A stretch of 62,754 bases of DNA, taken from an uncultured Muribaculaceae bacterium. Lineage in GTDB: Bacteria; Bacillota_I; Bacilli_A; RF39; UBA660. Under the pieces are notes generated by a model that was given only the letters and a program-made list of their open reading frames with translations, was not told the DNA's origin and did not search any database. A program made the position numbers and the translations under genes. The DNA is taken from contig CAYRXC010000001.1 of NCBI GenBank assembly GCA_964428195.1, positions 1 to 62,754 of the forward strand, written 5' to 3'. Of the stretch, positions 9,895-33,116 are shown in pieces. The first letter of the stretch is position 1; each line of letters opens with the position of its first letter.

Positions 9895-11238
9895 TTATCT
9901 TTGTATTGCTTTTCCTTCACATGCTTCAAATATTTTGGTTAATAAAGTAGCTTCTACTTCAGTTAGATATACAAAAGGATTGTTTTCATTAGTATGTAAC
10001 TCATTAGCAACACTACCAATTAAATTAACTATAAAATATGATTCAACAGGATTATCATAGTTTAGATTTTCAATTTCTGTTTGTAGTACTTTTTTATCTA
10101 CTCTTCCTTTTCTAACATCATTGACTAAGTTTTCTACTCTCTTCATATTTGCACTACTCACTGGATCCATTATATGATTTGATAATGCAGCGTCTTGATT
10201 ATCAGTATACAAAGAATAACTTTGTACTTGTTTTGAAATATTAGTAGAAGCAACAACTAGTCCAAATCTTTCTTCTTTATTTTCTAAATAAGCAAAATTT
10301 GAATTTAATAACTGATATGCAGCTTCCATTTCTTGATTTGTGAATGAAGCTTTAGAATCAATTGGTGTAGAACCAGAGTTTGCGCTTTTTGCAGCTTCCA
10401 TTACAACAAACGAGAACTTTTCAATCGCACTATTATCAATTTGATGTTCATCAACAATCATAGGTCTAGTTGTTGGACGCGGTGTAACAAATGGTAATTC
10501 AATATCTTCTATTGATTCTTCATATACTGGTTGTGGTGTTATTACCGGTATTTCATATACCGGTTGTGCTGTTATTGTTGGTACTTCCCTTGTTGGTTGA
10601 GCTGTATAATACAAGTCTATTGGAATAGGTTTTAATGTTGGAGTTGGTTCTGGAACAACTGAATAATCATAATTTAATTCTGTAACAGGTTTTAGCGTTG
10701 GATTTGATTCCGAAACAATTGAATATTCATGCTTTGAATCTTGACTTATATTAGTTATATTGTTTTTTCCTTTATTTCCGTTTAAAGTTATTCCAGTAAT
10801 TGCTAAAGCTGCAGCTAAACCCAATACAATAAATCTTTTGTTGTGCTTTTTTTCACCTTTTTCAACTTTTTTAACTTGTAACTCTACTCTTGGTGTAGGT
10901 TTAATGACAGTGTTTTTTATCTTATCTTGTCTATCTTTAATATCTCTTAATCTACTAAGGTTTTCCTCTGTATTTGAGTAAGCAACTATTTTTGCATTTA
11001 CTCCTTCTTGAATATAAGAAACAAATATATTGTCTCCTTCAACTTTTATGCTTTGTATTTGCATCATTTCAGAGTCAATTCTCTTTATTATGTTTTCTAC
11101 TTGTTCATATCCCTTAAATGTAGTTTGAACTAATTCTTTTTCGCTTAATTGATTTTTAGTAAAATCATTATATCGAAACAAGGTAACATACTTAAATCCG
11201 TTCCTATTATATTTTGCAACATTTTTTAAATTTTCCAT
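9895..11238 (-). CDS. hypothetical single-pass membrane protein with Pro/Thr-rich repeat linker (family not recognised)
   Basis: 447 aa. One TM helix (RFIVLGLAAALAITGITL). 19-aa and 11-aa internal repeats (..PTLKP.., ..ITAQPVYE..). RBS AAAAGGGGGAAAA. The C-terminal domain resembles the neighbouring ORF. Confidence 0.75.
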   Translation of the reverse strand: MENLKNVAKYNRNGFKYVTLFRYNDFTKNQLSEKELVQTTFKGYEQVENIIKRIDSEMMQIQSIKVEGDNIFVSYIQEGVNAKIVAYSNTEENLSRLRDIKDRQDKIKNTVIKPTPRVELQVKKVEKGEKKHNKRFIVLGLAAALAITGITLNGNKGKNNITNISQDSKHEYSIVSESNPTLKPVTELNYDYSVVPEPTPTLKPIPIDLYYTAQPTREVPTITAQPVYEIPVITPQPVYEESIEDIELPFVTPRPTTRPMIVDEHQIDNSAIEKFSFVVMEAAKSANSGSTPIDSKASFTNQEMEAAYQLLNSNFAYLENKEERFGLVVASTNISKQVQSYSLYTDNQDAALSNHIMDPVSSANMKRVENLVNDVRKGRVDKKVLQTEIENLNYDNPVESYFIVNLIGSVANELHTNENNPFVYLTEVEATLLTKIFEACEGKAIQR

Positions 11239-11268
11239 AATTTTCCCCCTTTTTTAATTACGACGTAT

Positions 11269-11296
11269 ATTATACACATTTATTTTGTTTTGTCAA
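11269..11296 (-). promoter_or_regulatory. consensus sigma-A promoter for the 447-aa hypothetical gene
   Basis: Minus strand: TTGACA (11291..11296), 16 nt spacer, TG-n-TATAAT (11269..11274). Confidence 0.7.
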
Positions 11297-11327
11297 GTTT
11301 GGTGTAAAATAAACACTATTTTACAAG

Positions 11328-11352
11328 AAAAAAACATACTTTCGTATGTTTT
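11328..11352 (-). terminator. Rho-independent terminator after the secreted hypothetical gene
   Basis: Minus strand: AAAACATAC-GAAA-GTATGTTTT followed by TTTTT. It overlaps the stop codon. Confidence 0.75.
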
Positions 11353-12310
11353 ATCTATTTTTTTGAGGAGCATCGATTTTTGCATTTAATTCGATGATTT
11401 TTTGAACTGAATCCCTCGAAGCATTATATGCTTGTTCTAGTTCAAAAACTAATCCCCCAATGTTTGCTCCCATATCAAGTAATTGCTCTTTAGTAAATAT
11501 TTTACCTTCATATTTATCTCTTCCATATTCATCTTTAATAAATAAGTGGAAAGAAAATTGAGAGTATTTATTTCCTTCTGGATCTTCAGGAACAAACATA
11601 ACTTGTTGTCTGTTTCCTCTTAGATCAGTTTCATAAAATTCTAAAGAAACTAAAGGTATTGCTTGTTGTGTATTTTCTTCAATATGTATATAGTTTTGAG
11701 GCATTGCTCTTACTAAAAAATTGCTTGCTTGTAAAATAGCTAACTCAACGCTTGGTGTATAATCATATCTATTAGTTGTTCTTACCATTTCAAATAGGTT
11801 GTCCATAGCCCCTTTTAATACTTCGGTATTATTTGGATTGTTTCTTATTGTGTCGGCAATGTCGTATATTCTTGATAAGAATTGTTTTTGTCCTTCGTCT
11901 TCGCAATAATTTGATAGTTTTGCGTCCTCTATTCCATATAATACTGAAAATCTTGTCATTGTATCATAAAAATTGATTAAATCAACAGTCATCTCAAATA
12001 GATTTTCTTCTGTCAATTTTCCATCAAATGGAAAGTTCATATTAATTAAGTTATTTGCTTGATTTGCTACCTCTATATCTGCCATTTCTTCTGAAACAGA
12101 TGGTGTTCTAAATTGGTTTTCTAGATTACACCCTTGAAGATAAGCATTATACATTCTTATTACTTCTGGAGAATAATCATTAATATCTAGTTGGTTTGTT
12201 GTAATCATTGGACTTCCAACAGTAGAAGCTTGTGCTTTAGGTAATTTTGTTGCTGCCATATTGCCTGCAACTAGTGCTGCAAATGCCATAGCTTTAAATC
12301 TATTACTCAT
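11351..12310 (-). CDS. hypothetical secreted protein (family not recognised), paralogous to the C-terminus of 9895..11238
   Basis: Start trimmed to the ATG at 12310 after AAAGGGGGAAA. Sec-type signal peptide MSNRFKAMAFAALVAGNMAATKLPKAQA/S. 319 aa. Confidence 0.75.
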   Translation of the reverse strand: MSNRFKAMAFAALVAGNMAATKLPKAQASTVGSPMITTNQLDINDYSPEVIRMYNAYLQGCNLENQFRTPSVSEEMADIEVANQANNLINMNFPFDGKLTEENLFEMTVDLINFYDTMTRFSVLYGIEDAKLSNYCEDEGQKQFLSRIYDIADTIRNNPNNTEVLKGAMDNLFEMVRTTNRYDYTPSVELAILQASNFLVRAMPQNYIHIEENTQQAIPLVSLEFYETDLRGNRQQVMFVPEDPEGNKYSQFSFHLFIKDEYGRDKYEGKIFTKEQLLDMGANIGGLVFELEQAYNASRDSVQKIIELNAKIDAPQKNR

Positions 12311-12343
12311 AAAATTTCCCCCTTTTTGAATAATTTGATTGTT

Positions 12344-12371
12344 ATTATACACACAATTAATTTTTTGTCAA
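12344..12371 (-). promoter_or_regulatory. consensus sigma-A promoter for the secreted hypothetical gene
   Basis: Minus strand: TTGACA (12366..12371), 16 nt spacer, TATAAT (12344..12349). The -35 hexamer is the Leu-Thr codons at the end of prmC. Confidence 0.7.
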
Positions 12372-14669: not shown

Positions 14670-15047
14670 TTAATCTAGAATCATTAGTTTGTATTCAAAA
14701 GTCCCTACATCTAATTCTGAATTACTTATTTTGTATTGTACATATAAGTAGTTTTCCATTATTTCTAGTTTTATAGTTTTTACATCCATTTCAATATTTA
14801 CTCCTAATGAAGTAATATTGTGCATACTTTTAAATGTTTTGTCCTTTTGAAATTCAAATTCAATTTTGTAATCGTCACTTGTTCTGCTTAACAAGAACTT
14901 GTCTTTAAAAATTGTCAATTTTACTATTATATCTTCTTCCATATATGTAATAGTATTGTTTTCTGAATCTTTTTCGGCGATTGCTTCAATACTGTAAGTT
15001 TCATTTTCTGAATTATTTATTATTGCTTTTATTTTGATTTTTTCCAT
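14670..15047 (-). CDS. DUF1934 (YwiB-like) beta-barrel protein
   Basis: 125 aa. Size and periodic pattern resemble YwiB, and it is adjacent to rpoE. The assignment is from memory. Confidence 0.55.
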   Translation of the reverse strand: MEKIKIKAIINNSENETYSIEAIAEKDSENNTITYMEEDIIVKLTIFKDKFLLSRTSDDYKIEFEFQKDKTFKSMHNITSLGVNIEMDVKTIKLEIMENYLYVQYKISNSELDVGTFEYKLMILD

Positions 15048-15112: not shown

Positions 15113-15148
15113 TTCACAAAAAAAATCTATTTATTAATAATAGATTTT
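15113..15148. terminator. bidirectional hairpin terminator downstream of the pilin-like genes
   Basis: AAATCTATT-TATTAAT-AATAGATTT, flanked by an A-run and a T-run. Confidence 0.6.
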
Positions 15149-16005
15149 TAATTAACAATTATCGTTCTTTTTACCGTATCGGCTTTGTTTCCAAAAATAT
15201 CAGAAACATCGTAATATTTGTAATAGGTTCCTTTGATATTTGTATTCACCGATCCACTTATTGTAATCCGAGAACTTATATTTCCGTCTTCAATATCGGT
15301 TGCAGTTGCATTATATTCAACATAAGTGCTTCCTACAGTAAGATTTATTGTTGAACCTCCTATAAGTGTTATAACTGGTTTGTTATTGTCTGAAGAAGTA
15401 CTTACATCTTCAACAATTACTTTTCTAATAACTGAATCTGCTTGTGGATATGTATATGTAACGTTATAAGTATCAGGTACAGAAGTATCAATCTCATCTG
15501 CTCCAAAATAGTTTGTTTCATGCAAATCTATAATAGTGTTTTCTGCAGGGTTAATTACTATTGCTCCATACTCAAAATATTCTCCATTTGTCCTTATTTT
15601 AATTTCTAAGGGTCCTTTCAATACTATTATTGGATTATTTTTTTGTTCTATATCAAACAAGGTATAAACCTCATTGTCAATCAAATAAATAATTACACTA
15701 TCGTAATAATTTACCGTAGTTTTCCCGTTAATTCTTAAATCCTTTTCTTTAATAAATCCTTTATTAATTAAAGCTTGAACATCTATAATTACTATATTAT
15801 CTGTTTCTATTGAAGGAATTTCATTTTTATAATTTAAATAATACATTTCAGCTGATTCTTCTATTAGTCTAATTTGAGAATCTGATGCATATTGCTTTAC
15901 AAAAAACAAATCATCATCAAATAACGATACTAATATTGTTGCTAATATTCCTAAAAGAATTACTATTGTTAAGACTTCGATAAGCGTAAATCCTTTTTTG
16001 TTCAT
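15148..16005 (-). CDS. type IV pilin-like (prepilin N-terminal methylation motif) protein with two Ig-like DUF5011-type domains
   Basis: N-terminus MNKKGFTLIEVLTIVILLGILATI (G/FTLIE class III signal, Glu+5). C-terminus has two repeats of the Y.E.GA..D..DG...G.V.T...G.Y...Y...D..GN.A...R.I.V pattern. Confidence 0.75.
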   Translation of the reverse strand: MNKKGFTLIEVLTIVILLGILATILVSLFDDDLFFVKQYASDSQIRLIEESAEMYYLNYKNEIPSIETDNIVIIDVQALINKGFIKEKDLRINGKTTVNYYDSVIIYLIDNEVYTLFDIEQKNNPIIVLKGPLEIKIRTNGEYFEYGAIVINPAENTIIDLHETNYFGADEIDTSVPDTYNVTYTYPQADSVIRKVIVEDVSTSSDNNKPVITLIGGSTINLTVGSTYVEYNATATDIEDGNISSRITISGSVNTNIKGTYYKYYDVSDIFGNKADTVKRTIIVN

Positions 16006-16020
16006 TATTCCTCCTCAATA

Positions 16021-16617
16021 TTATAAATCATCAGTTACAATAACATTTCTAGTTATGATGTTCGAGTCATTATAATAATATTCTAAAACATAAACCCCTT
16101 CTGTTGTTGTATCAACAACTCCTGAAGTTGCTTTCACATCTGGATTTGTCGTGGTCCCATCGAAACCAATAGCTCCTGGATCGTTGTAAGTTGTGTTTAA
16201 TTTAACTTTCTCATTATAAAAGCCTTTTAATGTGATTTTAGATTTTGTACTTTGATTGATATCATAAGATACTTTAATTTTGTTGTTATAATCCATTGTA
16301 ACATAAACAACATCATCTAAAAATATGGTTTCATCGGTACTTGGATTTTTAATGTTTTCTTCAATATAATTTGAATCTATAAGTGTTTTAATGGTAATAT
16401 TCATAAATCCATACTTGTTAAGTTCATCCAAATTTCTTAAATTATCAGTTACGTACTTGTGTGCAGATAATTCAATGTTTTTTATTTGCGTTTCCGTTGT
16501 TTTTTCTCGAGTTTCTTTTATTCTATTACTCAATAAAGGAACCGTAATAGTGATCAATAACATTATTATAATCATTACTGCTAATAATTCAATTAAAGTA
16601 AAACCATTTTTTTTCAT
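16021..16617 (-). CDS. type IV pilin-like protein with one Ig-like DUF5011-type domain
   Basis: N-terminus MKKNGFTLIELLAVMIIIMLLITI. C-terminus YNDPGAIGFDG...SGVVDTTTEGVYVLEYYY...RNVIV. Starts 24 nt after the ParB-family gene stop, with RBS AGAGGAG. Confidence 0.75.
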   Translation of the reverse strand: MKKNGFTLIELLAVMIIIMLLITITVPLLSNRIKETREKTTETQIKNIELSAHKYVTDNLRNLDELNKYGFMNITIKTLIDSNYIEENIKNPSTDETIFLDDVVYVTMDYNNKIKVSYDINQSTKSKITLKGFYNEKVKLNTTYNDPGAIGFDGTTTNPDVKATSGVVDTTTEGVYVLEYYYNDSNIITRNVIVTDDL

Positions 16618-16641: not shown

Positions 16642-18135
16642 TTATTTATCTATTTTTATTATTATTTGGTATAATCTTTCAAAATCAAATTCTTCAAAAT
16701 CTATTTTTATTCCGCTACTTTTTATGCCTTCAACTACTTTTTTTATCATGTTTTTTGAATTTTCAATATCTTGGTCATCTTCTCTTTTCGGCTCTTTTAA
16801 GTCCACAATAAACCTATTTTGTTGTTGTTTCTCTTCTTTTACACTTTCAATATTCTGAGATTGTGAGTTATTATTAATATTATTCGGTGTTTCTATTGAT
16901 TTATTACTTTCAACTTGATTACTGCCCCAAATTTGATCAACACTGAAACTTCTTTGGCTTAATTCGTTTTCCATTTGTAAGTTTACTTGAAGGTTTTCCT
17001 TTGGTTGAAAAGAAGTTTCTGGCACTAAATAATTGTCTTTTATGTCGGTCTTTGGAATTACATAAGGACTTGATTTTATATTATTAGTATCTCTAAAAAG
17101 TAATTCATCAAATGGAGAATTTACATTGCTAATTTTTTCAATCAAATCTTTTTGAGGATTATACTCTTTATTATTATGTGGTTCTGCTTGCATATTTTTA
17201 TTTTCCATTTCACTCCCTTTTTGAGGTTCTGAATCAACTATTATAAATGGCTTTGGTGCTATAATTTGTTGTTCTTTATTTTCAACTATATTATCTAAAC
17301 TAAAATTCATAATATCATTTTCATTATTCGATTTTTGTTCTACAAATACTTGTTCTTGCATAACGGATTCTTCTTGTTTTGATTCTTCTTCAATTTTTTC
17401 ATCTTGCTGAGTAATGTTTTCCTGAATAGTATGAATTGGAGAAATTTCCTGAAAGTTTTCATCTATTAATTCGTCTTCTTTTACTTTATTATCGTTTTTT
17501 TGTTCAATCGCTTCTTCTTCTTTGTTTTCTCCATACTTTTCTTTAATTATATCGTCAGTTTCCTTTACTGTTAATTTTTTTGATATTATTTCTTCTAATA
17601 GTTTTTTTTGCTCTTCTACATCTTTTATAACCAATAAACTTCTTGCATGTCTTTCGGAAATTTTTTCTTTAATTAGAGCTTCTTTTACTTCTTCTCCTAA
17701 AGATAATAATCTTAATTTATTTGCGATGTATGGTTGACTTTTTCCCAATCTTAATCCCAATTGTTCTTGAGTAATACCTCTTTCTAACAATTTCTTATAT
17801 GCTTGAGCTTCCTCAAACGATGTCATATCTTTTCTGTGAAGATTTTCAACTATTGCAACTTCTGCACTTTTATTATCATCAAAATCAACAATGATTGCAG
17901 GAACTTTTACTAATCCAATCAATTGTGATGCCTTATACCTTCTTTCACCCGCAATAATTTCATATTTATCACCTAATTTTCTCAAAACTAATGGTTGAAT
18001 TATTCCATGTTGTTTTATAGATTCAGCTAATTCCATCAAAGCTTTTTGATCAAAATTTAATCGAGGTTGAAACCTGTTTGGAATAATTTCGTCCAAAAAG
18101 ATATCTTTAATTTCTTTTTCAAAATTGTCACTCAT
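16642..18135 (-). CDS. noc: ParB/Spo0J/Noc-family DNA-binding protein, Noc-like, with a long low-complexity insertion
   Basis: IPNRFQPR, GERRYKA, HTH GKSQPYIANKLRLL and ISERHARSLL motifs. The C-terminal end resembles Noc. 497 aa against about 280 aa for typical family members. Confidence 0.8.
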   Translation of the reverse strand: MSDNFEKEIKDIFLDEIIPNRFQPRLNFDQKALMELAESIKQHGIIQPLVLRKLGDKYEIIAGERRYKASQLIGLVKVPAIIVDFDDNKSAEVAIVENLHRKDMTSFEEAQAYKKLLERGITQEQLGLRLGKSQPYIANKLRLLSLGEEVKEALIKEKISERHARSLLVIKDVEEQKKLLEEIISKKLTVKETDDIIKEKYGENKEEEAIEQKNDNKVKEDELIDENFQEISPIHTIQENITQQDEKIEEESKQEESVMQEQVFVEQKSNNENDIMNFSLDNIVENKEQQIIAPKPFIIVDSEPQKGSEMENKNMQAEPHNNKEYNPQKDLIEKISNVNSPFDELLFRDTNNIKSSPYVIPKTDIKDNYLVPETSFQPKENLQVNLQMENELSQRSFSVDQIWGSNQVESNKSIETPNNINNNSQSQNIESVKEEKQQQNRFIVDLKEPKREDDQDIENSKNMIKKVVEGIKSSGIKIDFEEFDFERLYQIIIKIDK

Positions 18136-18203
18136 ATTATTCCACCTTTTATTCTTATAGATATAATAATACTAAAAAAAAAGAATTTTTACAACTTTTT
18201 TTG

Positions 18204-18905
18204 TTATAAGGGCTTTTTTTTAATAATATTGTAATTTCTAGGAAATTGTGTGTTTATCTTTTTATTTTTTTTAATAACTAAAAGAGTTCTTTTCATATTA
18301 TCGATAGGTAAAACAAACCTTATTATTTTTTCTAAGGAAGAATCTAACAATTTTAAAAAATTTAGATTTAATAATTCTTCTTCAACTTCTGCTTTCATTG
18401 GAATAAAATAACCTTTTATTTTTACCAAGGGCAAACATATTTCAGAAATAATGTTTAGTTTTGCTAAAGCCCTACAAGTTACTAAATCATATTTTTCTCT
18501 ATTATTTTTACAAAATATTTCTACTCTATCATTAATTATTATTACATTAGTTAGATTTAATTCTGCTTTTACCATTTTTAAAAAATCTATTTTTTTATTA
18601 TTTGATTCTACTAATGTTACCATTAAGTTTGGAAAAAAAAGACTTAACACTATCCCCGGAAAACCAGCACCAGTTCCTACATCACAAATTGTTTTTGTTA
18701 TATTTAAATCTATTGCTTTTATTAAAGTTAAACTATCATAGAAATGTTTCAAATATACATCTTCTAAAGCGGTTATAGATGTAATATTTGTATGCTTGTT
18801 ATATTCAACAATCATTTCATAGTATTTATCTAGTTTATCAATTAATTTTTGGTCAATATTTATATTTAATTCTTCAACAAAATTAACAAATTCATCTTTA
18901 TTCAT
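18204..18905 (-). CDS. rsmG: 16S rRNA (guanine527-N7)-methyltransferase
   Basis: GidB family with DVGTGAGFPG SAM motif. Directly downstream of mnmG. Confidence 0.92.
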   Translation of the reverse strand: MNKDEFVNFVEELNINIDQKLIDKLDKYYEMIVEYNKHTNITSITALEDVYLKHFYDSLTLIKAIDLNITKTICDVGTGAGFPGIVLSLFFPNLMVTLVESNNKKIDFLKMVKAELNLTNVIIINDRVEIFCKNNREKYDLVTCRALAKLNIISEICLPLVKIKGYFIPMKAEVEEELLNLNFLKLLDSSLEKIIRFVLPIDNMKRTLLVIKKNKKINTQFPRNYNIIKKKPL

Positions 18906-20712
18906 CTTTAAAATACCTTTTCATATATACAAGTAATATCGAAATATCTGATAAATTAACCCCACTTATTCTACTTGCTTGTCCAATAGATTCTGGTCTA
19001 ATCAATTTAAGTTTTTGCTTTGCTTCTGTAGCAATATTAGTTATCTTGTCATAATCAATATCTTTTGGAATTTTTTTATATTCAAGTTTTAACATATTTT
19101 CGGCATTTTTTATTGTCTTTTTTATATATCCTTCGTATTTAATGGATATTTCTAATTGTTCTAACTCCTCTTTTGAATAGTGTTTATTAAATATATGTGA
19201 TATCTCATTTACTCTATTTTCAGGATGTTTTAAAAAATTATAAATTGTTTCTCCATTATTTACTTTTATTTCTTTTGATAAAGCTAATAATTCCTCAATA
19301 TTGTTTTTCTTTAATATAAACCTATCATATACATCATAGTTAACTAATCCAATATTTTTTCCATATTCAGTCAATCTTAAGTCAGCATTATCGTGTCTTA
19401 ATAATAATCTAAATTCTGCCCTTGAGGTAAGCAATCTATATGGTTCACTCGTTCCTTTTGTGATTAAGTCATCGATTAATACTCCAATATATGCTTCATT
19501 TCTCTTTAATATTAATGCATCTTTATTTTTTAACTTTAATGATGCATTAATTCCAGCCATTAACCCTTGACATGCTGCTTCTTCATATCCACTTGTTCCA
19601 TTTATTTGTCCGGCAGTGAATAAATTTTCGATGATTTTTGTTTCTAATGTTGCTTTTAATTGTGTAGGATTAATTGCATCATATTCTATTGCATAAGCAT
19701 ATTTTTTTATAACTGCATTTTCCAGTCCAGGAAGGCTGTGAACTAATTTATCTTGAATTTCCTTTGGCATACTAGTCGAGAATCCTTGTAAATATATATC
19801 ATCATAAAATAAACTTTCAGGTTCTAAAAATATTTGATGAGTATCTTTATCTTGAAATCGCATTATCTTATCTTCAAAAGAAGGACAATATCTTGGCCCA
19901 ACTCCTAATTTTTCTTCTATTGCTCCATACATACTTGATTTATTAATATTTTCTAATACTATTTTTTTTGTTTCTAAGGTTGTATGTACTAAATGACAAA
20001 GCATTTGATTATTTACATTGTAATAAACCTTGTTATCAAAACTAAATGTATATTCTTCCTCTGATCCTAATTCTAATTTGGTTTTGGAAAAGTCTATAGA
20101 AGATTTTTCTATTCTCTGAGGAGTACCCGTTTTTAATCTTGTAATTTCAAAACCATATTTTTTTAAATTATCACTTAGATATAATGATGGTTTTTGTTCC
20201 ATTGGTCCCATTCTTGTTCTAGAATTTCCAACCAATATATCACTCTTCATATATGTTCCTGTAGTTAATATCACTATATTTGAAAATAATTTTTTCCCAT
20301 TTTCTAAAACAATACCTTTTATTGTATTGTTTTCAATTAGCAAATCTTCAACCATATTTTCTAATAGATATAAATTTTTTTGAGATTTTAATGTTTTTAA
20401 CATTTCTTTTGGGTATGTAATTTTATCTGCTTGACATCTTAAACTTCTTACTGCAGGTCCTTTGCCAGTATTTAACATTTTCATTTGAATTAATGTTTTA
20501 TCTGCACATTTTCCCATTTCACCACCAAGTGCATCTATTTCTCTAACAACTATTCCTTTTGCACTTCCTCCGATTGAAGGATTACATGGCATTTGAGCAA
20601 CAATATTGAAATTTGATGTAATTAGCAAAGTTTTATGATTTAATCTTGCAGTAGCTAATGCAGCTTCACAACCTGCATGTCCGCCACCAACTACAATAAT
20701 TTCATAATCCAT
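18898..20712 (-). CDS. mnmG: tRNA uridine 5-carboxymethylaminomethyl modification enzyme MnmG (GidA)
   Basis: FAD motif VVGGGHAGCEAA. About 604 aa. Start placed at the ATG at 20712 after AAAGGTG; the track start at 20721 is GTG. Confidence 0.95.
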   Translation of the reverse strand: MDYEIIVVGGGHAGCEAALATARLNHKTLLITSNFNIVAQMPCNPSIGGSAKGIVVREIDALGGEMGKCADKTLIQMKMLNTGKGPAVRSLRCQADKITYPKEMLKTLKSQKNLYLLENMVEDLLIENNTIKGIVLENGKKLFSNIVILTTGTYMKSDILVGNSRTRMGPMEQKPSLYLSDNLKKYGFEITRLKTGTPQRIEKSSIDFSKTKLELGSEEEYTFSFDNKVYYNVNNQMLCHLVHTTLETKKIVLENINKSSMYGAIEEKLGVGPRYCPSFEDKIMRFQDKDTHQIFLEPESLFYDDIYLQGFSTSMPKEIQDKLVHSLPGLENAVIKKYAYAIEYDAINPTQLKATLETKIIENLFTAGQINGTSGYEEAACQGLMAGINASLKLKNKDALILKRNEAYIGVLIDDLITKGTSEPYRLLTSRAEFRLLLRHDNADLRLTEYGKNIGLVNYDVYDRFILKKNNIEELLALSKEIKVNNGETIYNFLKHPENRVNEISHIFNKHYSKEELEQLEISIKYEGYIKKTIKNAENMLKLEYKKIPKDIDYDKITNIATEAKQKLKLIRPESIGQASRISGVNLSDISILLVYMKRYFKDE

Positions 20713-20737
20713 ATTAATCACCTTTATTTCGATATTT

Positions 20738-21856
20738 TTAAAAAGTTTTTATTGGAACAATTAATTGAACTAAATTGTCCTCTTCTGTTGATTTAATAAT
20801 TATGGGTTTAATTTCTCCACTTAGTAATAGTTTTGTTTTTTCTCCTTTTATTGTTCTTAGAGCTTCCATCATATATTTTGAAGAATAAGAAATTTCTAAT
20901 TTAGAATTTTTATCAATATCTCCAAATATTCTTTCCTCTATTTTTCCAATTTCTTGAGAAATAGAACTTATAATAATTTCTTTATTATTTATATTCATCT
21001 TTATTACATTTTTATCTTTTTCAGATGTCAATAATGATGCTCTATCAATTGCATTAAAAAATTCATCAGTATTAACAGTTATAGTAAATGTAGGTTCAAT
21101 TTTTATTAGTTTTGTTGTATCAGGATAAGTTCCATTTAGTAATCTAGATTGAAATAATATATTATCGAATTTAAACAATATACTATTAGAGAATAAGTGA
21201 ATTTCTATTTTATCACTTTCATCATCTATTATTTTCGATAATTCTATTAAATTTCTTCCTGGAACAACAATATTAATTTCTTCTTCTATTTTTTCTTCTA
21301 TTCCTATTGATTTTTTCGATAATCTATATGAATCGGTTGCAACACATTCCATTACTTTGTCATTAATTTTAAAATTAATACCTGTTAGAATAGGTCTCGA
21401 TTCTTGAGAAGAAATGGCAAAAGATGTCTGAAAAATGATGTTTTTTAATAATTTTTTATCAATTTTGATTGGTTTTTCTACTAAATCTAAGTTTTTATCT
21501 GGGAAATCATCTGGGTTCATTCCATTTAAATTATACTCCCCGTTTTTCGAAATAATAGTAAAGTTTAATCCATCAGTAATAATTTCAATTATTTCATCAG
21601 GAATCTTTCTTATTATTTCTATTAAATATCTTCCAATTATTACTATATTTCCATTATCATTAATTTTATCAATATATTTTTTATCTATAAAAGATCTTAT
21701 TGTTATCTCATTATCACTGCATGTTAAATATAACCCTTCTTTATTCATTTCCAATTTAATTCCACTAAGTATTGGAATAATGTTTTTAGTTGATAAAGCT
21801 TTTGATACATTATTTAAGTTTTCTAATAATATTTCCTTTTTAATTATAAAATTCAT
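20738..21856 (-). CDS. dnaN: DNA polymerase III beta sliding clamp
   Basis: 372 aa. MNFIIKKEILLENLNNVSKAL and three-domain clamp architecture. Immediately downstream of dnaA. Confidence 0.95.
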   Translation of the reverse strand: MNFIIKKEILLENLNNVSKALSTKNIIPILSGIKLEMNKEGLYLTCSDNEITIRSFIDKKYIDKINDNGNIVIIGRYLIEIIRKIPDEIIEIITDGLNFTIISKNGEYNLNGMNPDDFPDKNLDLVEKPIKIDKKLLKNIIFQTSFAISSQESRPILTGINFKINDKVMECVATDSYRLSKKSIGIEEKIEEEINIVVPGRNLIELSKIIDDESDKIEIHLFSNSILFKFDNILFQSRLLNGTYPDTTKLIKIEPTFTITVNTDEFFNAIDRASLLTSEKDKNVIKMNINNKEIIISSISQEIGKIEERIFGDIDKNSKLEISYSSKYMMEALRTIKGEKTKLLLSGEIKPIIIKSTEEDNLVQLIVPIKTF

Positions 21857-21962
21857 TTTATATCCTTTCTTTTTTCTTATTATTTTTATTATTACGGTTG
21901 AAATTGTTAATAACTTAATATTTCTTTATTAATTAAGAAGTTTTTATTAACAATACATTAAC
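21857..21962. other. dnaA-dnaN intergenic region, likely the second oriC module (AT-rich unwinding side)
   Basis: 106 bp of almost pure A/T between dnaA and dnaN, the position of the DUE-containing module in Bacillus-type bipartite origins. Contains degenerate boxes TTATTAACA on both strands. Confidence 0.5.
21897..21913 (+). repeat. 17-nt motif GTTGAAATTGTTAATAA, copy 1
   Basis: Identical 17-mer also at 23517..23533. The reverse complement contains TTATTAACA (7/9 to a DnaA box). Confidence 0.8.
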
Positions 21963-23312
21963 TTATTTTAACTTACTTTTTAATAAATCAATAGTTTTTT
22001 TAAATTCTTTATTATTTTTTAATTCATTTTCAATTTTTGTACAAGCATGAATTATAGTAGTGTGATCTTTTCCTCCAAATTCAATTCCAATTCTTGGAAA
22101 GCTTTCATCAGTAAGGACTCTTGATAGATACATAGCTACTTGTCTAGGAAAGGTTATTTTACTATTTCTTTTTTTAGAATTCATGTCTTCAACAGATATT
22201 TGATAAAAATCTGATACAGTTTTTTGTATTTTTTGGATACTATTTTTCATAAATGCTGTTGAATTTAAATAATCACTTAATGCTTCTTTAGCTACTTCTA
22301 TTTCTATTTTTTCTTTATTAAACATTGCTGTATATGCAAATAATCTATTTAAAGCTCCTTCTAATTTTCTTACATCATTTGTGCAGTTATTTGCAATAAA
22401 TATAAGAACATCTTCAGAAATAGGTTTTGCAATCTCATGTGCACTTAATTTTTTCTTTAATATTTCAATTCTTAATTCATAATCTGGAGGTAATATACTT
22501 GTAGTTAATCCCCAATTAAATCTAGTTCTTAATCTCTCTTCTAATAATTTTAAATCATCTGGTGATCTATCTGAAGATATAATAATTTGTTTACCCTCTT
22601 GATGTAATTCATTAAATGTATGAAAAAACTCAGTTTGACTTTCTGTTGCACCAGCAAGAAATTGAATATCATCTATAATTAGAACATCAATATTTCTATA
22701 CTTATTTTTAAATGTTTCTACATTTTCTATATTGTTTTCTTCACTTTTTCTTTTATTAATTGAAACAAAATCAGATTTAAATTTATCACTAGTCACATAT
22801 AATACTTTTTTGTTCGTTGTTTCAACTACATAATTTCCAATTGCTTGCATTAAATGTGTTTTTCCTAGTCCACTACTTCCATATATAAATAAAGGATTAT
22901 AAGCTTTTCCAGGTCTTTCTGCAACAGCAAAAGCAGCTGTAAATGCAAGTCTATTAGTTTCTCCTTTTACAAAAGAATCAAATGTATAATTAGGATTTAA
23001 ATTTGCTTGAATAGGATTATTATAAGGTATACCTTCCTCATTTTTTATTATTTTACTGTCACTTGTTTCTTCTTCGAGCAAAAATTCAAAATCAAAATTA
23101 GTACCTGTTATAGAGTTCATTGTTTCTTTTATTAAATCATAATATGTCTCAGATAAGTTTTTTTTATGAAGATTCATTGGAACTATTATGAACATTTTTT
23201 TATTCTCAACTTTATGAAGTTTTGTTTCACTAAACCAGGCATCAAAAGCAATGGGAACCAATTTTTCTTTCATCATTTCTAGAAAACTTATCCACAAATT
23301 ATTTTCATCCAT
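21963..23312 (-). CDS. dnaA: chromosomal replication initiator protein DnaA
   Basis: AAA+ Walker A GSSGLGKTHL. C-terminal HTH with the DHTTIIHA signature. RBS AGAGGAGG. Confidence 0.97.
   Translation of the reverse strand: MDENNLWISFLEMMKEKLVPIAFDAWFSETKLHKVENKKMFIIVPMNLHKKNLSETYYDLIKETMNSITGTNFDFEFLLEEETSDSKIIKNEEGIPYNNPIQANLNPNYTFDSFVKGETNRLAFTAAFAVAERPGKAYNPLFIYGSSGLGKTHLMQAIGNYVVETTNKKVLYVTSDKFKSDFVSINKRKSEENNIENVETFKNKYRNIDVLIIDDIQFLAGATESQTEFFHTFNELHQEGKQIIISSDRSPDDLKLLEERLRTRFNWGLTTSILPPDYELRIEILKKKLSAHEIAKPISEDVLIFIANNCTNDVRKLEGALNRLFAYTAMFNKEKIEIEVAKEALSDYLNSTAFMKNSIQKIQKTVSDFYQISVEDMNSKKRNSKITFPRQVAMYLSRVLTDESFPRIGIEFGGKDHTTIIHACTKIENELKNNKEFKKTIDLLKSKLK
23288..23296 (+). promoter_or_regulatory. 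DnaA box (perfect TTATCCACA) inside the first codons of dnaA
   Basis: Exact 9-mer match. Confidence 0.7.
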
Positions 23313-23424
23313 AAATTGATACCTCCTCTAATATTTTGTGCTTTATTGATATTGTAAATCATTTTTCATAAAATATAAACAAGTAAATAATAAATAACAA
23401 GTTAATAACAATTAATTCACAGGT

Positions 23425-23433
23425 TTATTCACA
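23425..23433 (+). promoter_or_regulatory. DnaA box TTATTCACA (TTATNCACA class)
   Basis: 8/9 match to TTATCCACA. Confidence 0.65.
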
Positions 23434-23466
23434 AGGTAATATATTATATTTAAAGAAATAATTCAG

Positions 23467-23475
23467 TTATCCACA
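23467..23475 (+). promoter_or_regulatory. DnaA box (perfect TTATCCACA)
   Basis: Exact 9-mer match. Confidence 0.8.
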
Positions 23476-23516
23476 AAATCTATAATTTAATATTATAAAA
23501 TTAATTCGATATTATT

Positions 23517-23533
23517 GTTGAAATTGTTAATAA
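23517..23533 (+). repeat. 17-nt motif GTTGAAATTGTTAATAA, copy 2
   Basis: Identical to 21897..21913. Lies 9 nt upstream of the rpmH -35 hexamer. Confidence 0.8.
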
Positions 23534-23541
23534 GATTTTAA

Positions 23542-23570
23542 TTGACTTTTAATGGGGTAGCACTTATAAT
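23542..23570 (+). promoter_or_regulatory. sigma-A promoter of rpmH
   Basis: TTGACT, 17 nt spacer, TATAAT. Confidence 0.7.
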
Positions 23571-23599
23571 TATAGTGATTTATTTACAGGAGGAATAAT

Positions 23600-23728
23600 A
23601 TGAAAAGACCTTTTCAACCAAACAAAGCAAAAAGAAAAAAAACTCATGGTTTTTTTGCAAGAAAAGAAGCTAATACAGGAATCGTAACTGCAAGAAGAAA
23701 AAAACAAAGAAAGATATTGACAAAATAA
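23600..23728 (+). CDS. rpmH: 50S ribosomal protein L34
   Basis: Not in the ORF track (42 aa). MKRPFQPNKAKRKKTHGFFARKEANTGIVTARRKKQRKILTK, preceded by AGGAGGA. Confidence 0.93.
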   Translation: MKRPFQPNKAKRKKTHGFFARKEANTGIVTARRKKQRKILTK

Positions 23729-23769
23729 AACACCAATAGTGTTTTTTTGTTATGAAGCGGAATAATTAA

Positions 23770-24090
23770 ATGAAAAAAATAAATATAATAAAATTTAATA
23801 GAGACTTCGATAACATAATAAAAAATGGAAAATATATTAAATCTGAATTATTTAATATATATTATATTGATAGTAATAGCAAATATAATAAGTATGGAAT
23901 TTCTGTTCCAAAGAAGATTGGGAATGCAGTTATAAGAAACAAAATAAAAAGACAAATTAAAAACATTATTGATAATAGAATTGAAATTAAAAACAAAAAA
24001 GATGTAATAATAATAATTAAAAACAGAATTTTAGATTACAAATATGGAGAAATAGAAAATAAATTAGTAGAAACAATTAAGAAAATATAG
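23770..24090 (+). CDS. rnpA: ribonuclease P protein component
   Basis: 106-aa basic protein directly after rpmH, with a KKIGNAVIRNKIKRQIK (RNR-like) motif. Confidence 0.88.
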   Translation: MKKINIIKFNRDFDNIIKNGKYIKSELFNIYYIDSNSKYNKYGISVPKKIGNAVIRNKIKRQIKNIIDNRIEIKNKKDVIIIIKNRILDYKYGEIENKLVETIKKI

Positions 24091-24098
24091 AGGTAAGT

Positions 24099-25118
24099 AT
24101 GTATAAAAAACTTGTTATGATCGTATTATTTTTGTTAATATTTTCAGGATGTTCAAAAACTTTAGTTGATAAAGATAAGAAACCAGTTAAGTACGAGGCT
24201 TCTTTAATATGTGAAAATTGCGAAAAAATATGTAATAAAAATGAACAAAAAGAGAAGTGTATAGAAGATTGTGAGAATAAATGCCAATTAGCTAAGAAAA
24301 ATGAGACTGGGCAATCGTTAACAGAAAACATATTATGTAAGCCTACTAATCCAGATGTACTCGAAATATATAAAAATAACGAAGTTAATTTGGATAATCT
24401 AGTTGAATGCAAAGATTTTGAATTAAAAAACAGTAAATATGAAGGCTTATGGGATAGCTTATTTGTAAAACCGTTGGCATGGTTGATTTTGAAACTCGGT
24501 AATATAATAAATAACTATGGTCTTTCTTTGATATTTATAAGTTTAATAATTAGAATAATTTTGTTACCTGTAACAAAGAATACAGCATTACAATCCGAAA
24601 ATATGAAAAAAGCTCAACCGGAGATTAAAAAAATAGAAAAAAAATATGAGGGAAAAACTGATCAAGATTCATTAATGAAAAAAAGTCAAGAAACAATGCT
24701 ACTATATAAAAAATATAACATTAATCCTATGTCGAGTTGCTTATTTGCACTGATTCAAATTCCTTTATTATTTGCATTCATAGAAGCAATAAATAGAACT
24801 CCAGCAATTTTTGAAGGAAGTTTATTAGGATTCAAATTAGGAATGACTCCGCTGATTGCTCTTCAAAAAGGAGAAATATGGTATATAATTATTGTTATAT
24901 TGTTAGCAGTTATTACATATTTATCTTTTAAGTTAAATAAGGGAGCACCTACAGGATTAGACAATCAAAAACAAATGAATATAATGAATACAGTCTTTGT
25001 TGTAATGATTATATTTATGTCGTTCTCAATGGCTACAGCAATAAGTTTATATTGGATATCATCAAATGTATTTACCATTATTCAAAATTTAGCTGTTAAA
25101 AGGAGAGAAGAAAAATGA
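24099..25118 (+). CDS. yidC: membrane protein insertase YidC/SpoIIIJ family, lipoprotein, with Cys-rich N-terminal extension
   Basis: Lipobox LLIFSGC. Conserved YidC core (ISLIIRIILLPV..., PLLFAF..., LYWISSNVFTIIQ). About 339 aa. Confidence 0.92.
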   Translation: MYKKLVMIVLFLLIFSGCSKTLVDKDKKPVKYEASLICENCEKICNKNEQKEKCIEDCENKCQLAKKNETGQSLTENILCKPTNPDVLEIYKNNEVNLDNLVECKDFELKNSKYEGLWDSLFVKPLAWLILKLGNIINNYGLSLIFISLIIRIILLPVTKNTALQSENMKKAQPEIKKIEKKYEGKTDQDSLMKKSQETMLLYKKYNINPMSSCLFALIQIPLLFAFIEAINRTPAIFEGSLLGFKLGMTPLIALQKGEIWYIIIVILLAVITYLSFKLNKGAPTGLDNQKQMNIMNTVFVVMIIFMSFSMATAISLYWISSNVFTIIQNLAVKRREEK

Positions 25119-25729: not shown

Positions 25730-25751
25730 AGTGTATATACTCTATTTTTTT
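25727..25751 (+). terminator. Rho-independent terminator after jag
   Basis: Stem TAGAGT/ACTCTA with a 6-nt loop, followed by TTTTTTT. Confidence 0.6.
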
Positions 25752-25775
25752 GTTATAATCTTATTGGGTGATATT

Positions 25776-27122: not shown

Positions 27123-27123
27123 C

Positions 27124-30271: not shown

Positions 30272-32701
30272 GTGGAAGAAAACATAGTAGATAAAATAGA
30301 AGATATCAATTTATCTTCAGAAATAAAAAACTCTTTTCTTGATTACTCAATGAGTGTAATTGTTTCAAGAGCAATACCGGATGTTAGAGATGGTTTGAAA
30401 CCGGTACATAGAAGAATATTATATACAATGTATGAAGAAGGAATGACACCGGACAAAAAACATCAAAAAAGTGCAAATGCAGTCGGAGCAGTTATGGGGC
30501 ACTATCACCCTCATGGAGACTCTGCAATTTATGACAGTATGGCAAGAATGGCACAAGATTTTACGTACAGACACACGTTAGTAGATGGACATGGTAATTT
30601 TGGATCTGGAGATGGTGATAGTCCTGCTGCTTCAAGATATACAGAAGCTAGATTATCTAAGATTTCTATGGAATTATTAAGAGATATAAACAAAAATACA
30701 GTAGATTTTACTGATAATTATGATGGCCAAAGAAAAGAACCTTCTATATTACCGTCACGTTTTCCTAATATTCTCGTAAACGGAAATATGGGAATTGCAG
30801 TTGGAATGGCAACAAATATTCCTCCTCATAATTTAGGAGAAGTAATAGACGGTTGTATAGCGTTTATCGATAATAAAGAAATATCTGTTCTTGAGTTAAT
30901 GCAGTTTATCAAAGGACCAGATTTCCCGACATATGGATATATTTTGGGAAACAGTGGAATAAAGAAAGCATATGAAACAGGAAAAGGATCGATAGTTTTA
31001 AGAGGAAAAGCAAGGATTATTGAAGAAGAAAACAAGAAAAGTAGAATAATTATAACGGAAGTTCCTTATCAAGTAAGTAAGACAAACGATTTAACAAAAA
31101 AAATCGGAGAATTAATAAGAAATAAACAAATAGATGGAATAAGTGATCTTCAAGACGAATCTACTCTTGAAGGAATAAAACTTACAATTGAAATAAAGAA
31201 AGAAGCTAATGCTAATGTTGTTTTAAATAACTTATATAAACACACGCCGCTTCAAGTAAATTACGGAATAAATTTGCTAATGTTGGTCGATGGAAGACCA
31301 AAAACCTTGGGATTAAAGGATATATTGAATTATTACGTAGAATATCAAAAATCAATAATAATTCGAAGAACAAAGTTTGATTTAGATAAATCAAAAGCAA
31401 GGGAACACATATTAGAAGGACTCAAAATTGCATTAGACAACATTGATGAAATTGTTAAAATATTAAAGAATGCAAAAGATGACTCTAAAGCAAAAGAAGA
31501 ATTAAAAGAAAAATTCAATTTATCTGATTTACAATCAGAAGCAATTTTAGAAATGAAATTAAGAAGACTAACGGGTCTTGAAAGAGGAAAAATTGAAGAA
31601 GAGCTCGCAGCTATCCTTTTGCTAATTAAAGAATTAGAAGAAATCTTGGCAGATTCAAATAAAGTACTTGAAATAATAAAAAAGGAACTATTAGAAATTA
31701 AAGAAAAATATGCTAATGAAAGAAGAACACAAATAGATTTATCTTCTATTGAAAACATAGAAGACGAAGAACTTATACCACAAGAAGAAATTATAGTAAC
31801 ATTAACTAACAAAGGATATATAAAGAGACTTCCTTTGGACACCTATAAGACGCAAAATAGGGGCGGCGTAGGAATAAAAGGAATGACAACAAATGAAGAA
31901 GATTTCGTAGAAAACTTATTGATGCTAAACACTCATGATTATTTATTGCTGTTCTCTGACAAAGGGTTGATATATAGAATAAAAGGTTATGAGGTGCCTG
32001 AGTATAGTAGACAATCAAAAGGATTGCCAATTGTAAACTTATTGCCTCTTGAGAAAGATGAAATTATCACTTCTGTTTTAAAAATTAATCAAATTGAAGA
32101 AAACAGATGTTTGCTATTTGCAACCGAAAAAGGGTTGGTGAAAAGATGTAGCATTGATGATTTTAACAGCATAAGAAAAACGGGCAAGATAGCCATTAAA
32201 TTAAAAGAAAACGATAAATTAATTGCCGTTCTTAAGACTAACGGAGAGTCTGAAATAACAATGGCATCATCTAACGGTAAAATGGTTAGATTCAACGAAA
32301 AAGAAATAAGAATAATGGGAAGAAATGCTTCGGGAGTAAAGGGAATAAACGTTGGAAACGACTCCATTTGTATTGGGGCTAGTGTTGCTGATAATGATAA
32401 GGAAGTTCTTGTAGTAAGTGAAAAAGGATATGGAAAAAGAACTAAATTAGAAAACTATAGAGTTACTAAAAGAGGCAGCAAGGGGGTCAAAACTATTAAT
32501 TCTACAGCTAAGACAGGAAAAATGATCTCGTTTAAAATGGTTAGTGACGAAGAAGACTTAATGATTGTTACTGACTTTGGAATGTTAATTAGGATACCTA
32601 TTTCTCAAATATCATCAATGAGCAGGGTAACACAAGGGGTTAGATTGATTAATTTAAAAGACAACCAAAAAGTATCTTCAGTATTTAACGTAATGGAGTA
32701 A
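30272..32701 (+). CDS. gyrA: DNA gyrase subunit A
   Basis: [22 protein letters not shown] and active-site [13 protein letters not shown] start after AAGGAGGA. Confidence 0.97.
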
Positions 32702-32735: not shown

Positions 32736-32751
32736 TATTTCCCGGGAAATA
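32736..32751. promoter_or_regulatory. perfect Noc-binding site (NBS) palindrome
   Basis: TATTTCCCGGGAAATA contains the 14-bp NBS consensus ATTTCCCGGGAAAT exactly. Confidence 0.7.
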
Positions 32752-32760
32752 TATAAGCAT

Positions 32761-32945
32761 CGATGTTCCACGTGAAACATACAAGCTAGTAACAAAGAAT
32801 CGATGTTCCACGTGAAACATACAAGCTAGTAACAGAGTGTCAATGTTCCACGTGAAACATACAAGCTAGTAACAGAGTGTCAATGTTCCACGTGAAACAT
32901 ACAAACTAGTAACAAAGTATCGATGTTCCACGTGAAACATATATC
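32761..32945. repeat. 40-bp tandem repeat array carrying five identical parS sites
   Basis: TGTTCCACGTGAAACA at 32764, 32804, 32844, 32884 and 32924 (16/16 to B. subtilis parS). Four full 40-bp units plus a 25-bp partial unit. Spacers are near-identical. Confidence 0.9.
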
Positions 32946-32983: not shown

Positions 32984-33012
32984 TTGCATCATTATAAGAG
33001 TTGATATATAAT
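32984..33012 (+). promoter_or_regulatory. sigma-A promoter of the SRP RNA gene
   Basis: TTGCAT, 17 nt spacer, TATAAT. The RNA 5' end is predicted 7 nt downstream. Confidence 0.65.
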
Positions 33013-33018
33013 TAATAA

Positions 33019-33091
33019 GACGTAACAAGCCGTTAATAAAATAGGTCAGGATCGAAAGATAGCAGCCATATTAAGCGGGCTTGTGTACGTC
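33019..33091 (+). ncRNA. ffs: small (4.5S-type) signal recognition particle RNA
   Basis: Long hairpin GACGTAACAAGCC.../...GGGCTTGTGTACGTC. Conserved domain IV GGTCAGG-ATC-GAAA-GAT-AGCAGCC. A T-run (ATTTTTT) follows. Lies in the tadA-dnaX neighbourhood, near where scr sits in Bacillus. Confidence 0.85.
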
Positions 33092-33116
33092 ATTTTTTAA
33101 TTTTAAGGGGAGATAT

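Follow-up and report, generated by a model that had tools for sequence, protein, structure and literature searches.

A predicted Noc orthologue with a long disordered linker and no N-terminal membrane helix near the replication origin of an uncultured gut bacterium

Introduction

Among ParB paralogues, Noc is the textbook example of the acquisition of a new DNA site and of a membrane-targeting helix gated by cytidine triphosphate (CTP). A survey of the ParB-CTPase fold treats Noc as retaining the canonical architecture (PMC12704722). The question of how far a Noc can depart from this plan is raised by a gene for a ParB-family protein of 497 amino acids in a 62.7-kb stretch of DNA, contig CAYRXC010000001.1 (hereinafter the window). 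An earlier inspection of the nucleotide sequence alone (the sequence-only reading) suggested that the product could be a Noc-derived or intermediate-specificity CTP clamp that had lost membrane tethering and gained a disordered linker, and proposed it as the reader of a locus that combines Noc-binding sites (NBS) with parS sites. The explanation that best accounts for the evidence as a whole, and that we consider probable, is that this protein is an NBS-specific Noc clamp which does not bind the membrane directly, employs its linker as an adaptor and shares an origin-proximal complex with a ParB. The main points of note are the clade-wide loss of the membrane helix that defines Noc and the pairing of NBS with parS.

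Orthology to Noc

A scan of reference genomes detected more than 570 relatives that share the architecture of the protein, the best match being 54% identical, and 80 species-level loci were retrieved from among them (1.3 Mb in total, 24-31% GC, numbered in an L series). All 80 are uncultured metagenome-assembled genomes from the gut, with labels that include Bacilli, Tenericutes, Mollicutes, Firmicutes CAG:460, Candidatus Coprovivens and Candidatus Ventrenecus, a set that we take to resemble the order RF39; the gene probably belongs to an uncultured, RF39-like lineage of low-GC gut Bacilli.

Among proteins of known structure, the best matches are Noc of Geobacillus thermoleovorans (7NG0 and 7NFU, at 4e-58 and 6e-58, respectively), followed by Noc of Bacillus subtilis (1e-53) and Spo0J (2e-47). 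Identity to the Bacillus and Geobacillus Noc proteins is 51-52% over residues 6-202, and identity to ParB/Spo0J is 43-44% over the N-terminal 200 residues. The absolute score against the curated Noc model of NCBIfam discriminates poorly, given that B. subtilis Spo0J reaches 257 bits. The margin over the score of the generic ParB model was therefore taken as the measure; this protein has a margin of +110 bits, its relatives range from +95 to +116, B. subtilis Noc has +154, and Spo0J proteins have about +30. In a neighbour-joining tree built on 194 aligned columns with a small reference set, the protein and 18 relatives are the sister group of Bacillus/Geobacillus Noc (197 of 200 bootstraps), whereas the Spo0J proteins from the genomes of four relatives form a separate clade with B. 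subtilis Spo0J.

The whole-family profile, when compared with B. subtilis Noc, reported the N-terminal 200 residues only, and the C-terminal domain was hence tested separately. A profile of the last 46 residues of the family matches residues 241-283 of B. subtilis Noc (its last 43) end to end at 19.9 bits, and pairwise Smith-Waterman alignment of this domain gives z = 12.5, with none of 500 shuffles scoring as well; the C-termini of Spo0J, in which this domain is different, are matched by neither method. The likeness to the C-terminal end of Noc that the sequence-only reading had pointed out is thus borne out. The gene also sits directly downstream of rsmG (gidB), as expected for Noc and as in Bacillus and Geobacillus, and, among those of the 80 related loci that extend far enough to include these genes, the large majority retain the order mnmG-rsmG-noc. 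Phylogeny, the C-terminal domain, rsmG synteny and the cognate NBS sites described below agree on the Noc derivation of the protein, which is best regarded as a Noc orthologue, not an intermediate form.

The ParB-family motifs are all present where the sequence-only reading had located them (IPNRFQPR, residues 18-25; GERRYKA, 63-69; GKSQPYIANKLRLL, 131-144; ISERHARSLL, 159-168), and the protein ends in SGIKIDFEEFDFERLYQIIIKIDK. The domain layout (Table 1) is the three-domain CTP-clamp architecture of chromosomal ParB/Spo0J (6SDK, 1VZ0), and the CTP-binding domain, the helix-turn-helix (HTH) with its counterparts of Q173, K179 and R201, and the C-terminal domain are all shared with Noc of B. 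subtilis and G. thermoleovorans (YyaA; 7OL9, 6Y93, 7NFU, 7NG0). In the AlphaFold2 model, the predicted local distance difference test (pLDDT) score is 75-91 in the N-terminal CTP-binding domain and 75-93 across the domains that flank the linker. The CTP-pocket boxes GERR (G63-E-R-R66), ENxxR (E97-N98) and PNRFQPR are conserved in the family, with GERR and E97-N98 invariant; R66 and N98 are the equivalents of Noc R89 and N121, both of which are required for CTP binding (PMC8429893). The box differs in detail from the GERRWRA of Bacillus/Geobacillus Noc: throughout the Noc clade it reads GERR[YF]KA (window 17929-17949), with lysine in place of the arginine usual in ParB and Noc. The same lysine occurs in the GERRVKA of three of the four Spo0J proteins of relatives (L036, L077 and L083), whereas that of L035 retains arginine (GERRLRA). 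In the subclade of the source organism, ENLHR (window 17833-17847) stands instead of ENLQR.

Absence of the membrane-targeting helix

The stretch ahead of IPNRFQPR is only 17 residues long and acidic (net charge -2). An in-frame TAG stop lies 12 codons upstream of the ATG, which together with the Shine-Dalgarno site fixes the short N-terminus and makes an N-terminal extension impossible; the start assigned in the sequence-only reading and the absence of an N-terminal amphipathic helix are accordingly confirmed. No such membrane-targeting helix is present in this protein, where there is no room for it ahead of IPNRFQPR, or in the rest of the clade: in 41 of the 80 relatives, PNRFQPR is preceded by only 16 residues. 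The longer N-termini of nine relatives were set aside as apparent artefacts, produced when the earliest possible start codon in the AT-rich upstream DNA is chosen. The identical protein is encoded on 12 contigs, and the six places shown come from six different sequencing runs, so that an assembly artefact is excluded.

In B. subtilis Noc, the 10-residue N-terminal helix is needed for both membrane binding and nucleoid occlusion (PMC8429893). What is missing here, unlike in Bacillus/Geobacillus Noc, is an N-terminal part of about 26 residues (amphipathic helix alpha1 plus alpha2) that is responsible for CTP-gated membrane binding, and membrane binding by the known CTP-gated route is therefore impossible. 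Judged from its sequences, the clade corresponds in nature to the NΔ26 truncation of Noc that was used for crystallography, and membrane tethering appears to have been lost in vivo. The two atypical features, the short N-terminus and the long linker, are clade-wide traits: the relatives are 310-717 amino acids long (median 411), and all the variation falls between the DNA-binding and C-terminal domains.

Specificity of DNA binding

Alignment to the Noc and Spo0J structures places Q134, K140, S145 and R162 at positions 173, 179, 184 and 201, respectively, so that the four specificity residues picked out in the sequence-only reading survive a proper alignment and are not of the ParB type. Within NBS, Q173 makes its contact with adenine 1 and R201 with the C6:G-6 pair; a single lysine at either 179 or 184 suffices to license NBS binding, and K184 (K169 in Noc numbering) touches phosphate only (PMC7383237). 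Three of the four residues match the Noc type literally, and the fourth is serine at 184, unlike the lysine of Bacillus/Geobacillus Noc. Because Q173, one lysine and R201 satisfy the published rule, Q-K-S-R belongs to the NBS-specific class. Among the 80 relatives, the combinations are QKNR (54), QKSR (13), QKTR (9), QKAR (3) and QTER (1); Q/K/x/R is found in 79 of the 80, and lysine at position 184 in none. A non-basic residue at this position is a trait of the whole clade, and natural NBS-type proteins would then tolerate it, in line with the deep mutational scan.

The proposal of an intermediate specificity does not hold up against the same rule. R173 is found in every parS-specific variant, and T or S at 201 in most of those with dual specificity (PMC7383237); ParB, which binds parS, combines R173 with G, S or T at 201. 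This protein, with Q134 and R162, shows neither of these ParB traits, and it also lacks the N-terminal ParA-binding motif of ParB (LG-R/K-GL, searched for as [LFI]G[KR]G[LFI]).

NBS and parS sites

The window contains, between gyrA and dnaX, two NBS followed by five parS (Table 1). The five parS 16-mers are identical, and the 24-bp spacers between them vary. The suggestion that the protein reads this locus is retained in part: it should read the two NBS and, as predicted from Q134, K140 and R162, not the parS. Five perfect parS need a reader of the R173 type, which implies a separate ParB.

The perfect 16-bp NBS, identical to that in the genomes of Bacillus and Geobacillus, occurs 20 times in the 1.3 Mb of related loci, where essentially none would be expected by chance, and 18 of these sites are on the upstream, oriC-proximal side of noc. 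Solitary perfect NBS recur in the same intergenic spots near oriC, namely jag-mnmE, mnmE-mnmG, rsmG-noc and recF-dnaN (loci L013-L085); examples are found at L015:5612 and 5894, L018:5068 and 5125, L050:9898 and L074:283.

Mixed arrays like that of the window were sampled from public metagenome contigs by searching for a perfect NBS 5-35 bp from a perfect parS, which yielded at least 120 contigs (19-38% GC); the counts that follow refer to the matches listed. These loci (735 kb) contain 293 perfect NBS and 395 perfect parS, about 0.001 of each being expected from base composition, and 291 of 292 NBS are flanked by T...A. Two or more NBS are present on 87 contigs and two or more parS on 99. Neighbouring sites form 318 mixed pairs, 82 parS-parS pairs and 18 NBS-NBS pairs; one mixed pair per contig at minimum is forced by the search pattern, and the remainder is not. 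The centre-to-centre spacing of NBS and parS peaks at 24-29 bp and 34-38 bp, and is 28 bp in the window. Of the 120 contigs, 79 show gyrA and 80 show dnaX; the 46 on which both genes can be seen hold 172 of 172 parS and 109 of 122 NBS in the gyrA-dnaX gap, the same place as the array of the window. The flanks of the array contigs encode no ParB-family protein. One of the contigs is 98.6% identical in nucleotide sequence over 5.5 kb (same species) to a relative that lacks soj-spo0J within 10 kb of its noc, and another is 82% identical over 3.6 kb to L083, in which noc, soj and spo0J are found together. Two examples from loci L087-L206 may be given: L175 has nine NBS and seven parS with a period of about 106 bp, and L137 has four NBS and six parS, five of them in the array, with a 72-bp period.

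In the origin-proximal DNA that is visible, NBS cluster next to parS and no more than about 10 kb from oriC, unlike the scattered sites of Bacillus/Geobacillus Noc.

The partner question

Searched with tblastn, the window has no match to B. subtilis Soj, and the Spo0J and Noc queries match the noc gene only. About 5 kb of flanks were added through other assemblies of the same organism, and neither Soj nor Spo0J was found in the few kilobases beyond the window ends, where rpsL-rpsG-fusA lie at one end and a zinc-finger protein is encoded at the other. The statement that neither a ParA nor a second ParB follows the gene, and that two pilin-like genes do, is supported by the tblastn result and by the N_methyl motifs of the latter. 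The broader statement that this is the only ParB-family gene, with no partner, stands for the 62.7-kb window and a few kilobases beyond; for the genome it is unproven, and four of the 80 relatives do have canonical soj-spo0J genes. In L036, L077 and L083 these are directly downstream of noc, and in L035 they lie about 8 kb upstream of it on the opposite strand. The Spo0J proteins of the relatives carry the ParA-binding motif (LGRGLEELF or LGKGLEELF) and the specificity residues R-x-x-S/G/T. The four relatives with soj-spo0J branch at the base of the clade in the tree, which suggests that the noc-soj-spo0J block is ancestral and was lost or moved in the source lineage. With a profile of the four Spo0J proteins, the matches listed were all at least 69% identical to the queries, and with L035 Spo0J alone at least 83% identical, so that neither search reached the source lineage.

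The two pilin-like genes (window 15148-16617, minus strand) encode a type IV pilin N-methylation motif (N_methyl) and a bacterial Ig-like surface domain. They occupy the place that soj-spo0J has in the basal relatives and were seen only in the closest relatives, L007 and L008.

It is conceivable that the protein is the single ParB-family member of its genome and, having relaxed or intermediate specificity, reads both NBS and parS in place of a ParB lost with soj-spo0J. Neither Soj nor Spo0J is encoded in the window or just beyond, soj-spo0J is missing from the vicinity of noc in most relatives, position 184 is never lysine in the clade, and NBS and parS are about 25-36 bp apart in the arrays, all of which would fit such a dual reader. 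The contacts to DNA speak the other way: Q173 is unable to contact G1 of parS, R173 is present in all parS binders, arginine rather than T or S is at 201, and the residue that is missing at 184 would contact phosphate only. Moreover, at least 120 contigs keep two distinct perfect palindromes together, which points to two readers; wherever both genes are visible in a relative, both proteins are encoded; and Staphylococcus aureus, with Noc and an unlinked ParB but no ParA, shows this to be a normal arrangement in Firmicutes (PMC5540599). A dual reader is accordingly quite improbable, and the five identical parS with varying spacers, along with the S. aureus precedent, favour a separate ParB encoded elsewhere in the genome.

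The linker

The insertion between the HTH and C-terminal domains appears to be a disordered linker, as first proposed, and not a known folded domain: it has no Pfam match (residues 200-497, E<=1), and its pLDDT is below 50 except in one short helix (residues 327-336, pLDDT 63-71). On these grounds, a known domain in the insertion was rejected. The description of the linker as 250 residues of low complexity is only partly apt. Its composition is biased (15% E, 13% N, 10% Q and 9% K), but its Shannon entropy is 3.76 bits vs 3.87 for the folded part, no tandem repeat was found, and six conserved islands (Table 1) stand out in an alignment of homologues of 44-69% identity (A2). Two of the six can also be recognized in much more distant members, one by the consensus D-I-N-x-L-L and the other by [KR]-F-I ahead of acidic residues. 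Bacillus/Geobacillus Noc has no such acidic linker, and S. aureus Noc, which has an N-terminal helix, is of ordinary length and is not known to have a long disordered linker. The longest Noc of the sample, that of L077 (9992-12145; 717 amino acids), has a linker of about 470 residues in which N, Q, G, S and M are very abundant and which is thus prion-like in composition.

The islands bear on the main functional alternative, an ordinary nucleoid-occlusion Noc that blocks division over the origin-proximal chromosome, with the DNA tethered to the membrane either by helix 327-336 or by a membrane-protein partner of the linker motifs. Orthology to Noc would favour this possibility; the hydrophobic moment of the helix, 0.54, is close to that of the B. 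subtilis Noc helix (0.43-0.56), and the conserved motifs could bind a membrane protein. However, the helix has a net charge of 0 and a mean hydrophobicity of -0.13 within a linker of charge -26, which is unfavourable for anionic lipid, no transmembrane segment was found in the linker, and the NPQxxLIxKL motif of the helix island is not conserved clade-wide. In the DNA visible, furthermore, the NBS are packed beside oriC and parS and not scattered. An indirect tether hence appears unlikely, though less so than a dual reader. A membrane helix simply relocated into the linker was rejected, as the linker has neither a cationic amphipathic nor a transmembrane segment.

Proposed mode of action

Under the preferred reading of the protein as an NBS-specific Noc clamp, dimerization would proceed via the Noc-type C-terminal domain, and the HTH, with Q134, K140 and R162, would recognize NBS (TATTTCCCGGGAAATA, 32.72-32.75 kb) and not parS, as the specificity rule predicts and the clade-wide occurrence of NBS supports. 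By analogy with B. subtilis Noc, CTP bound in the pocket would close the N-terminal gate, and the dimer would slide off NBS as a clamp. With no amphipathic helix, this clamp would be the natural equivalent of N-terminally truncated Noc. The polyanionic linker of 250 residues would project from the clamp, most likely as a partner-recruiting adaptor, and would enlarge the clamp lumen. The protein and a ParB from a separate gene would probably assemble side by side in a single nucleoprotein complex near the origin.

Several observations weigh against this interpretation. The specificity rule on which it draws was derived on the Caulobacter ParB scaffold (PMC7383237). No ParB able to read the five parS was found in the 62.7 kb plus about 5 kb of flanks, and soj-spo0J was not found within 10 kb of noc in 76 of the 80 relatives. 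The linker islands match no motif known to us. Finally, the protein scores 273 bits, and its relatives 289-303, against the curated NCBIfam model TIGR04285, which leaves them below the cut-off of 315, where B. subtilis Noc reaches 373 and Spo0J proteins 231-257; the low score is attributable to the missing N-terminus and to the split of the model match by the linker.

The same sub-cut-off score and the hypervariable length of the linker might be read as signs of a decaying extra copy of noc or parB, the middle region of which is junk from a frameshift or fusion. The conservation data effectively refute this: the frame is intact and preceded by a strong ribosome-binding site, the same protein was recovered in six sequencing runs, the architecture extends to more than 570 relatives, the catalytic and DNA-binding residues are all invariant, and conserved islands exist within the linker, with a conserved C-terminal domain beyond it.

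More tentatively, and with the balance somewhat against it, Noc may here have become a second centromere-binding clamp that works with ParB and is no longer a membrane-tethering nucleoid-occlusion factor: NBS and parS are interleaved, usually about 25-36 bp apart, in one array near the origin, and the helix-less Noc might decorate the ParB partition complex with its long acidic linker, the conserved motifs of which would tether or regulate the origin. Possible roles of such a clamp include segregation without ParA, control of replication initiation and division timing. Among known systems, one of the closest to the protein described here is S. aureus Noc, encoded in a genome with ParB but no ParA; besides selecting the division site, it controls the initiation of replication, a role linked to the origin (PMC5540599).

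In the literature searched, coverage of which is incomplete, no description of a helix-less Noc or of mixed NBS/parS arrays was found. Hundreds of gut species seem to retain the DNA site and the CTP clamp of Noc with a motif-bearing disordered linker and without the helix. If this is true, the membrane tether is not essential to the Noc family, and the paired sites would constitute a natural two-clamp centromere, a system for studying two sliding CTP clamps that share one stretch of DNA.

Genomic setting and other observations

The window represents the replication-origin region, which is of low GC content (about 28%), with a switch in the sign of GC skew near 23.5 kb. The minus strand carries, in this order, dnaA, dnaN, mnmG, rsmG and noc, past which follow the two pilin-like genes, an acidic gene of 154 amino acids, prfA and prmC; the acidic gene, which has no Pfam match, is read as a putative rpoE from its sequence. 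The plus strand encodes rnpA, yidC, jag, mnmE, recF, gyrB, gyrA, the RNA of the signal recognition particle (SRP) and dnaX.

Table 1. Coordinates of the noc gene, its domains and linker islands, and nearby sites in the window
Feature	Position	Strand	Remarks
noc orthologue	16642..18135	-	open reading frame (ORF), 497 aa; stop codon 16642-16644
Shine-Dalgarno site AAAGGTGG	18142..18149	-	6 nt before ATG
ParB-type CTP-binding domain, residues 8-100	17836..18114	-	Pfam PF02195 (ParB_N), 2.5e-31; boxes PNRFQPR, GERRYKA, ENLHR
HTH DNA-binding domain, residues 102-199	17539..17832	-	Pfam PF17762 (HTH_ParB), 1.4e-31; Q134, K140, S145, R162
Acidic linker, residues 204-453 (250 aa)	16777..17526	-	net charge -26, predicted disordered
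Island IMNFSLDNI, residues 275-283	17287..17313	-	A2
Island PKPFIIVD, residues 294-301	17233..17256	-	A2; P296 invariant
Island EPHNNKEYNPQKDLIEKISNV, residues 318-338	17122..17184	-	A2; pattern EPHNN..NPQ.DLI.KISNV; site of the sole helix predicted in the linker
Island SSPYVIPKTDIKDNYL, residues 355-370	17026..17073	-	A2; P361 in at least 90% of rows
Island SFSVDQIW (SF..DQIW), residues 396-403	16927..16950	-	A2; wider-clade consensus D-I-N-x-L-L
Island QNRFIVDL, residues 439-446	16798..16821	-	A2; wider-clade consensus [KR]-F-I, then acidic residues
Noc-type C-terminal dimerization domain, residues 454-497	16645..16776	-	AlphaFold2 pLDDT 80-87; one helix and two strands
rsmG	18204..18905	-	Pfam GidB; 68 bp upstream of noc
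dnaA	21963..23312	-	
gyrA	30272..32701	+	
Degenerate NBS ATTTCCCGAGAAAA	32720..32733		2 mismatches; copy 17 bp upstream of the perfect site, with which it forms a 17-bp direct repeat
Perfect 16-bp NBS TATTTCCCGGGAAATA	32736..32751		predicted loading site of this protein
Five perfect parS TGTTCCACGTGAAACA	32764..32939		period of 40 bp; this protein is not predicted to read them
SRP RNA	33010..33105	+	

The arrangement around oriC is inverted in the source lineage (window 18204-28221; also L007, L008 and L118), such that dnaA-dnaN are co-directional with mnmG-rsmG-noc and recF adjoins mnmE; the usual order in most relatives is recF-dnaN-dnaA | yidC-jag-mnmE-mnmG-rsmG-noc. The small SRP RNA directly follows the parS array and is itself followed by a gene resembling a tRNA adenosine deaminase (region 33010-33551), the longest ORF of which begins with TTG at 33081. 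This start overlaps the SRP RNA, and the true one is therefore probably further downstream. Three conserved ORFs of 447, 333 and 125 amino acids near noc (window 9895-12352 and 14670-15047, minus strand) have no Pfam match.

Low-GC origin contigs of the Bacilli type, among them L007, L008, L023, L025 and L048, have been deposited under the names 'uncultured Muribaculaceae bacterium' or 'Methanobacteriaceae archaeon'; a Bacilli-type origin region under such record names suggests mislabelled or mis-binned assembled genomes.

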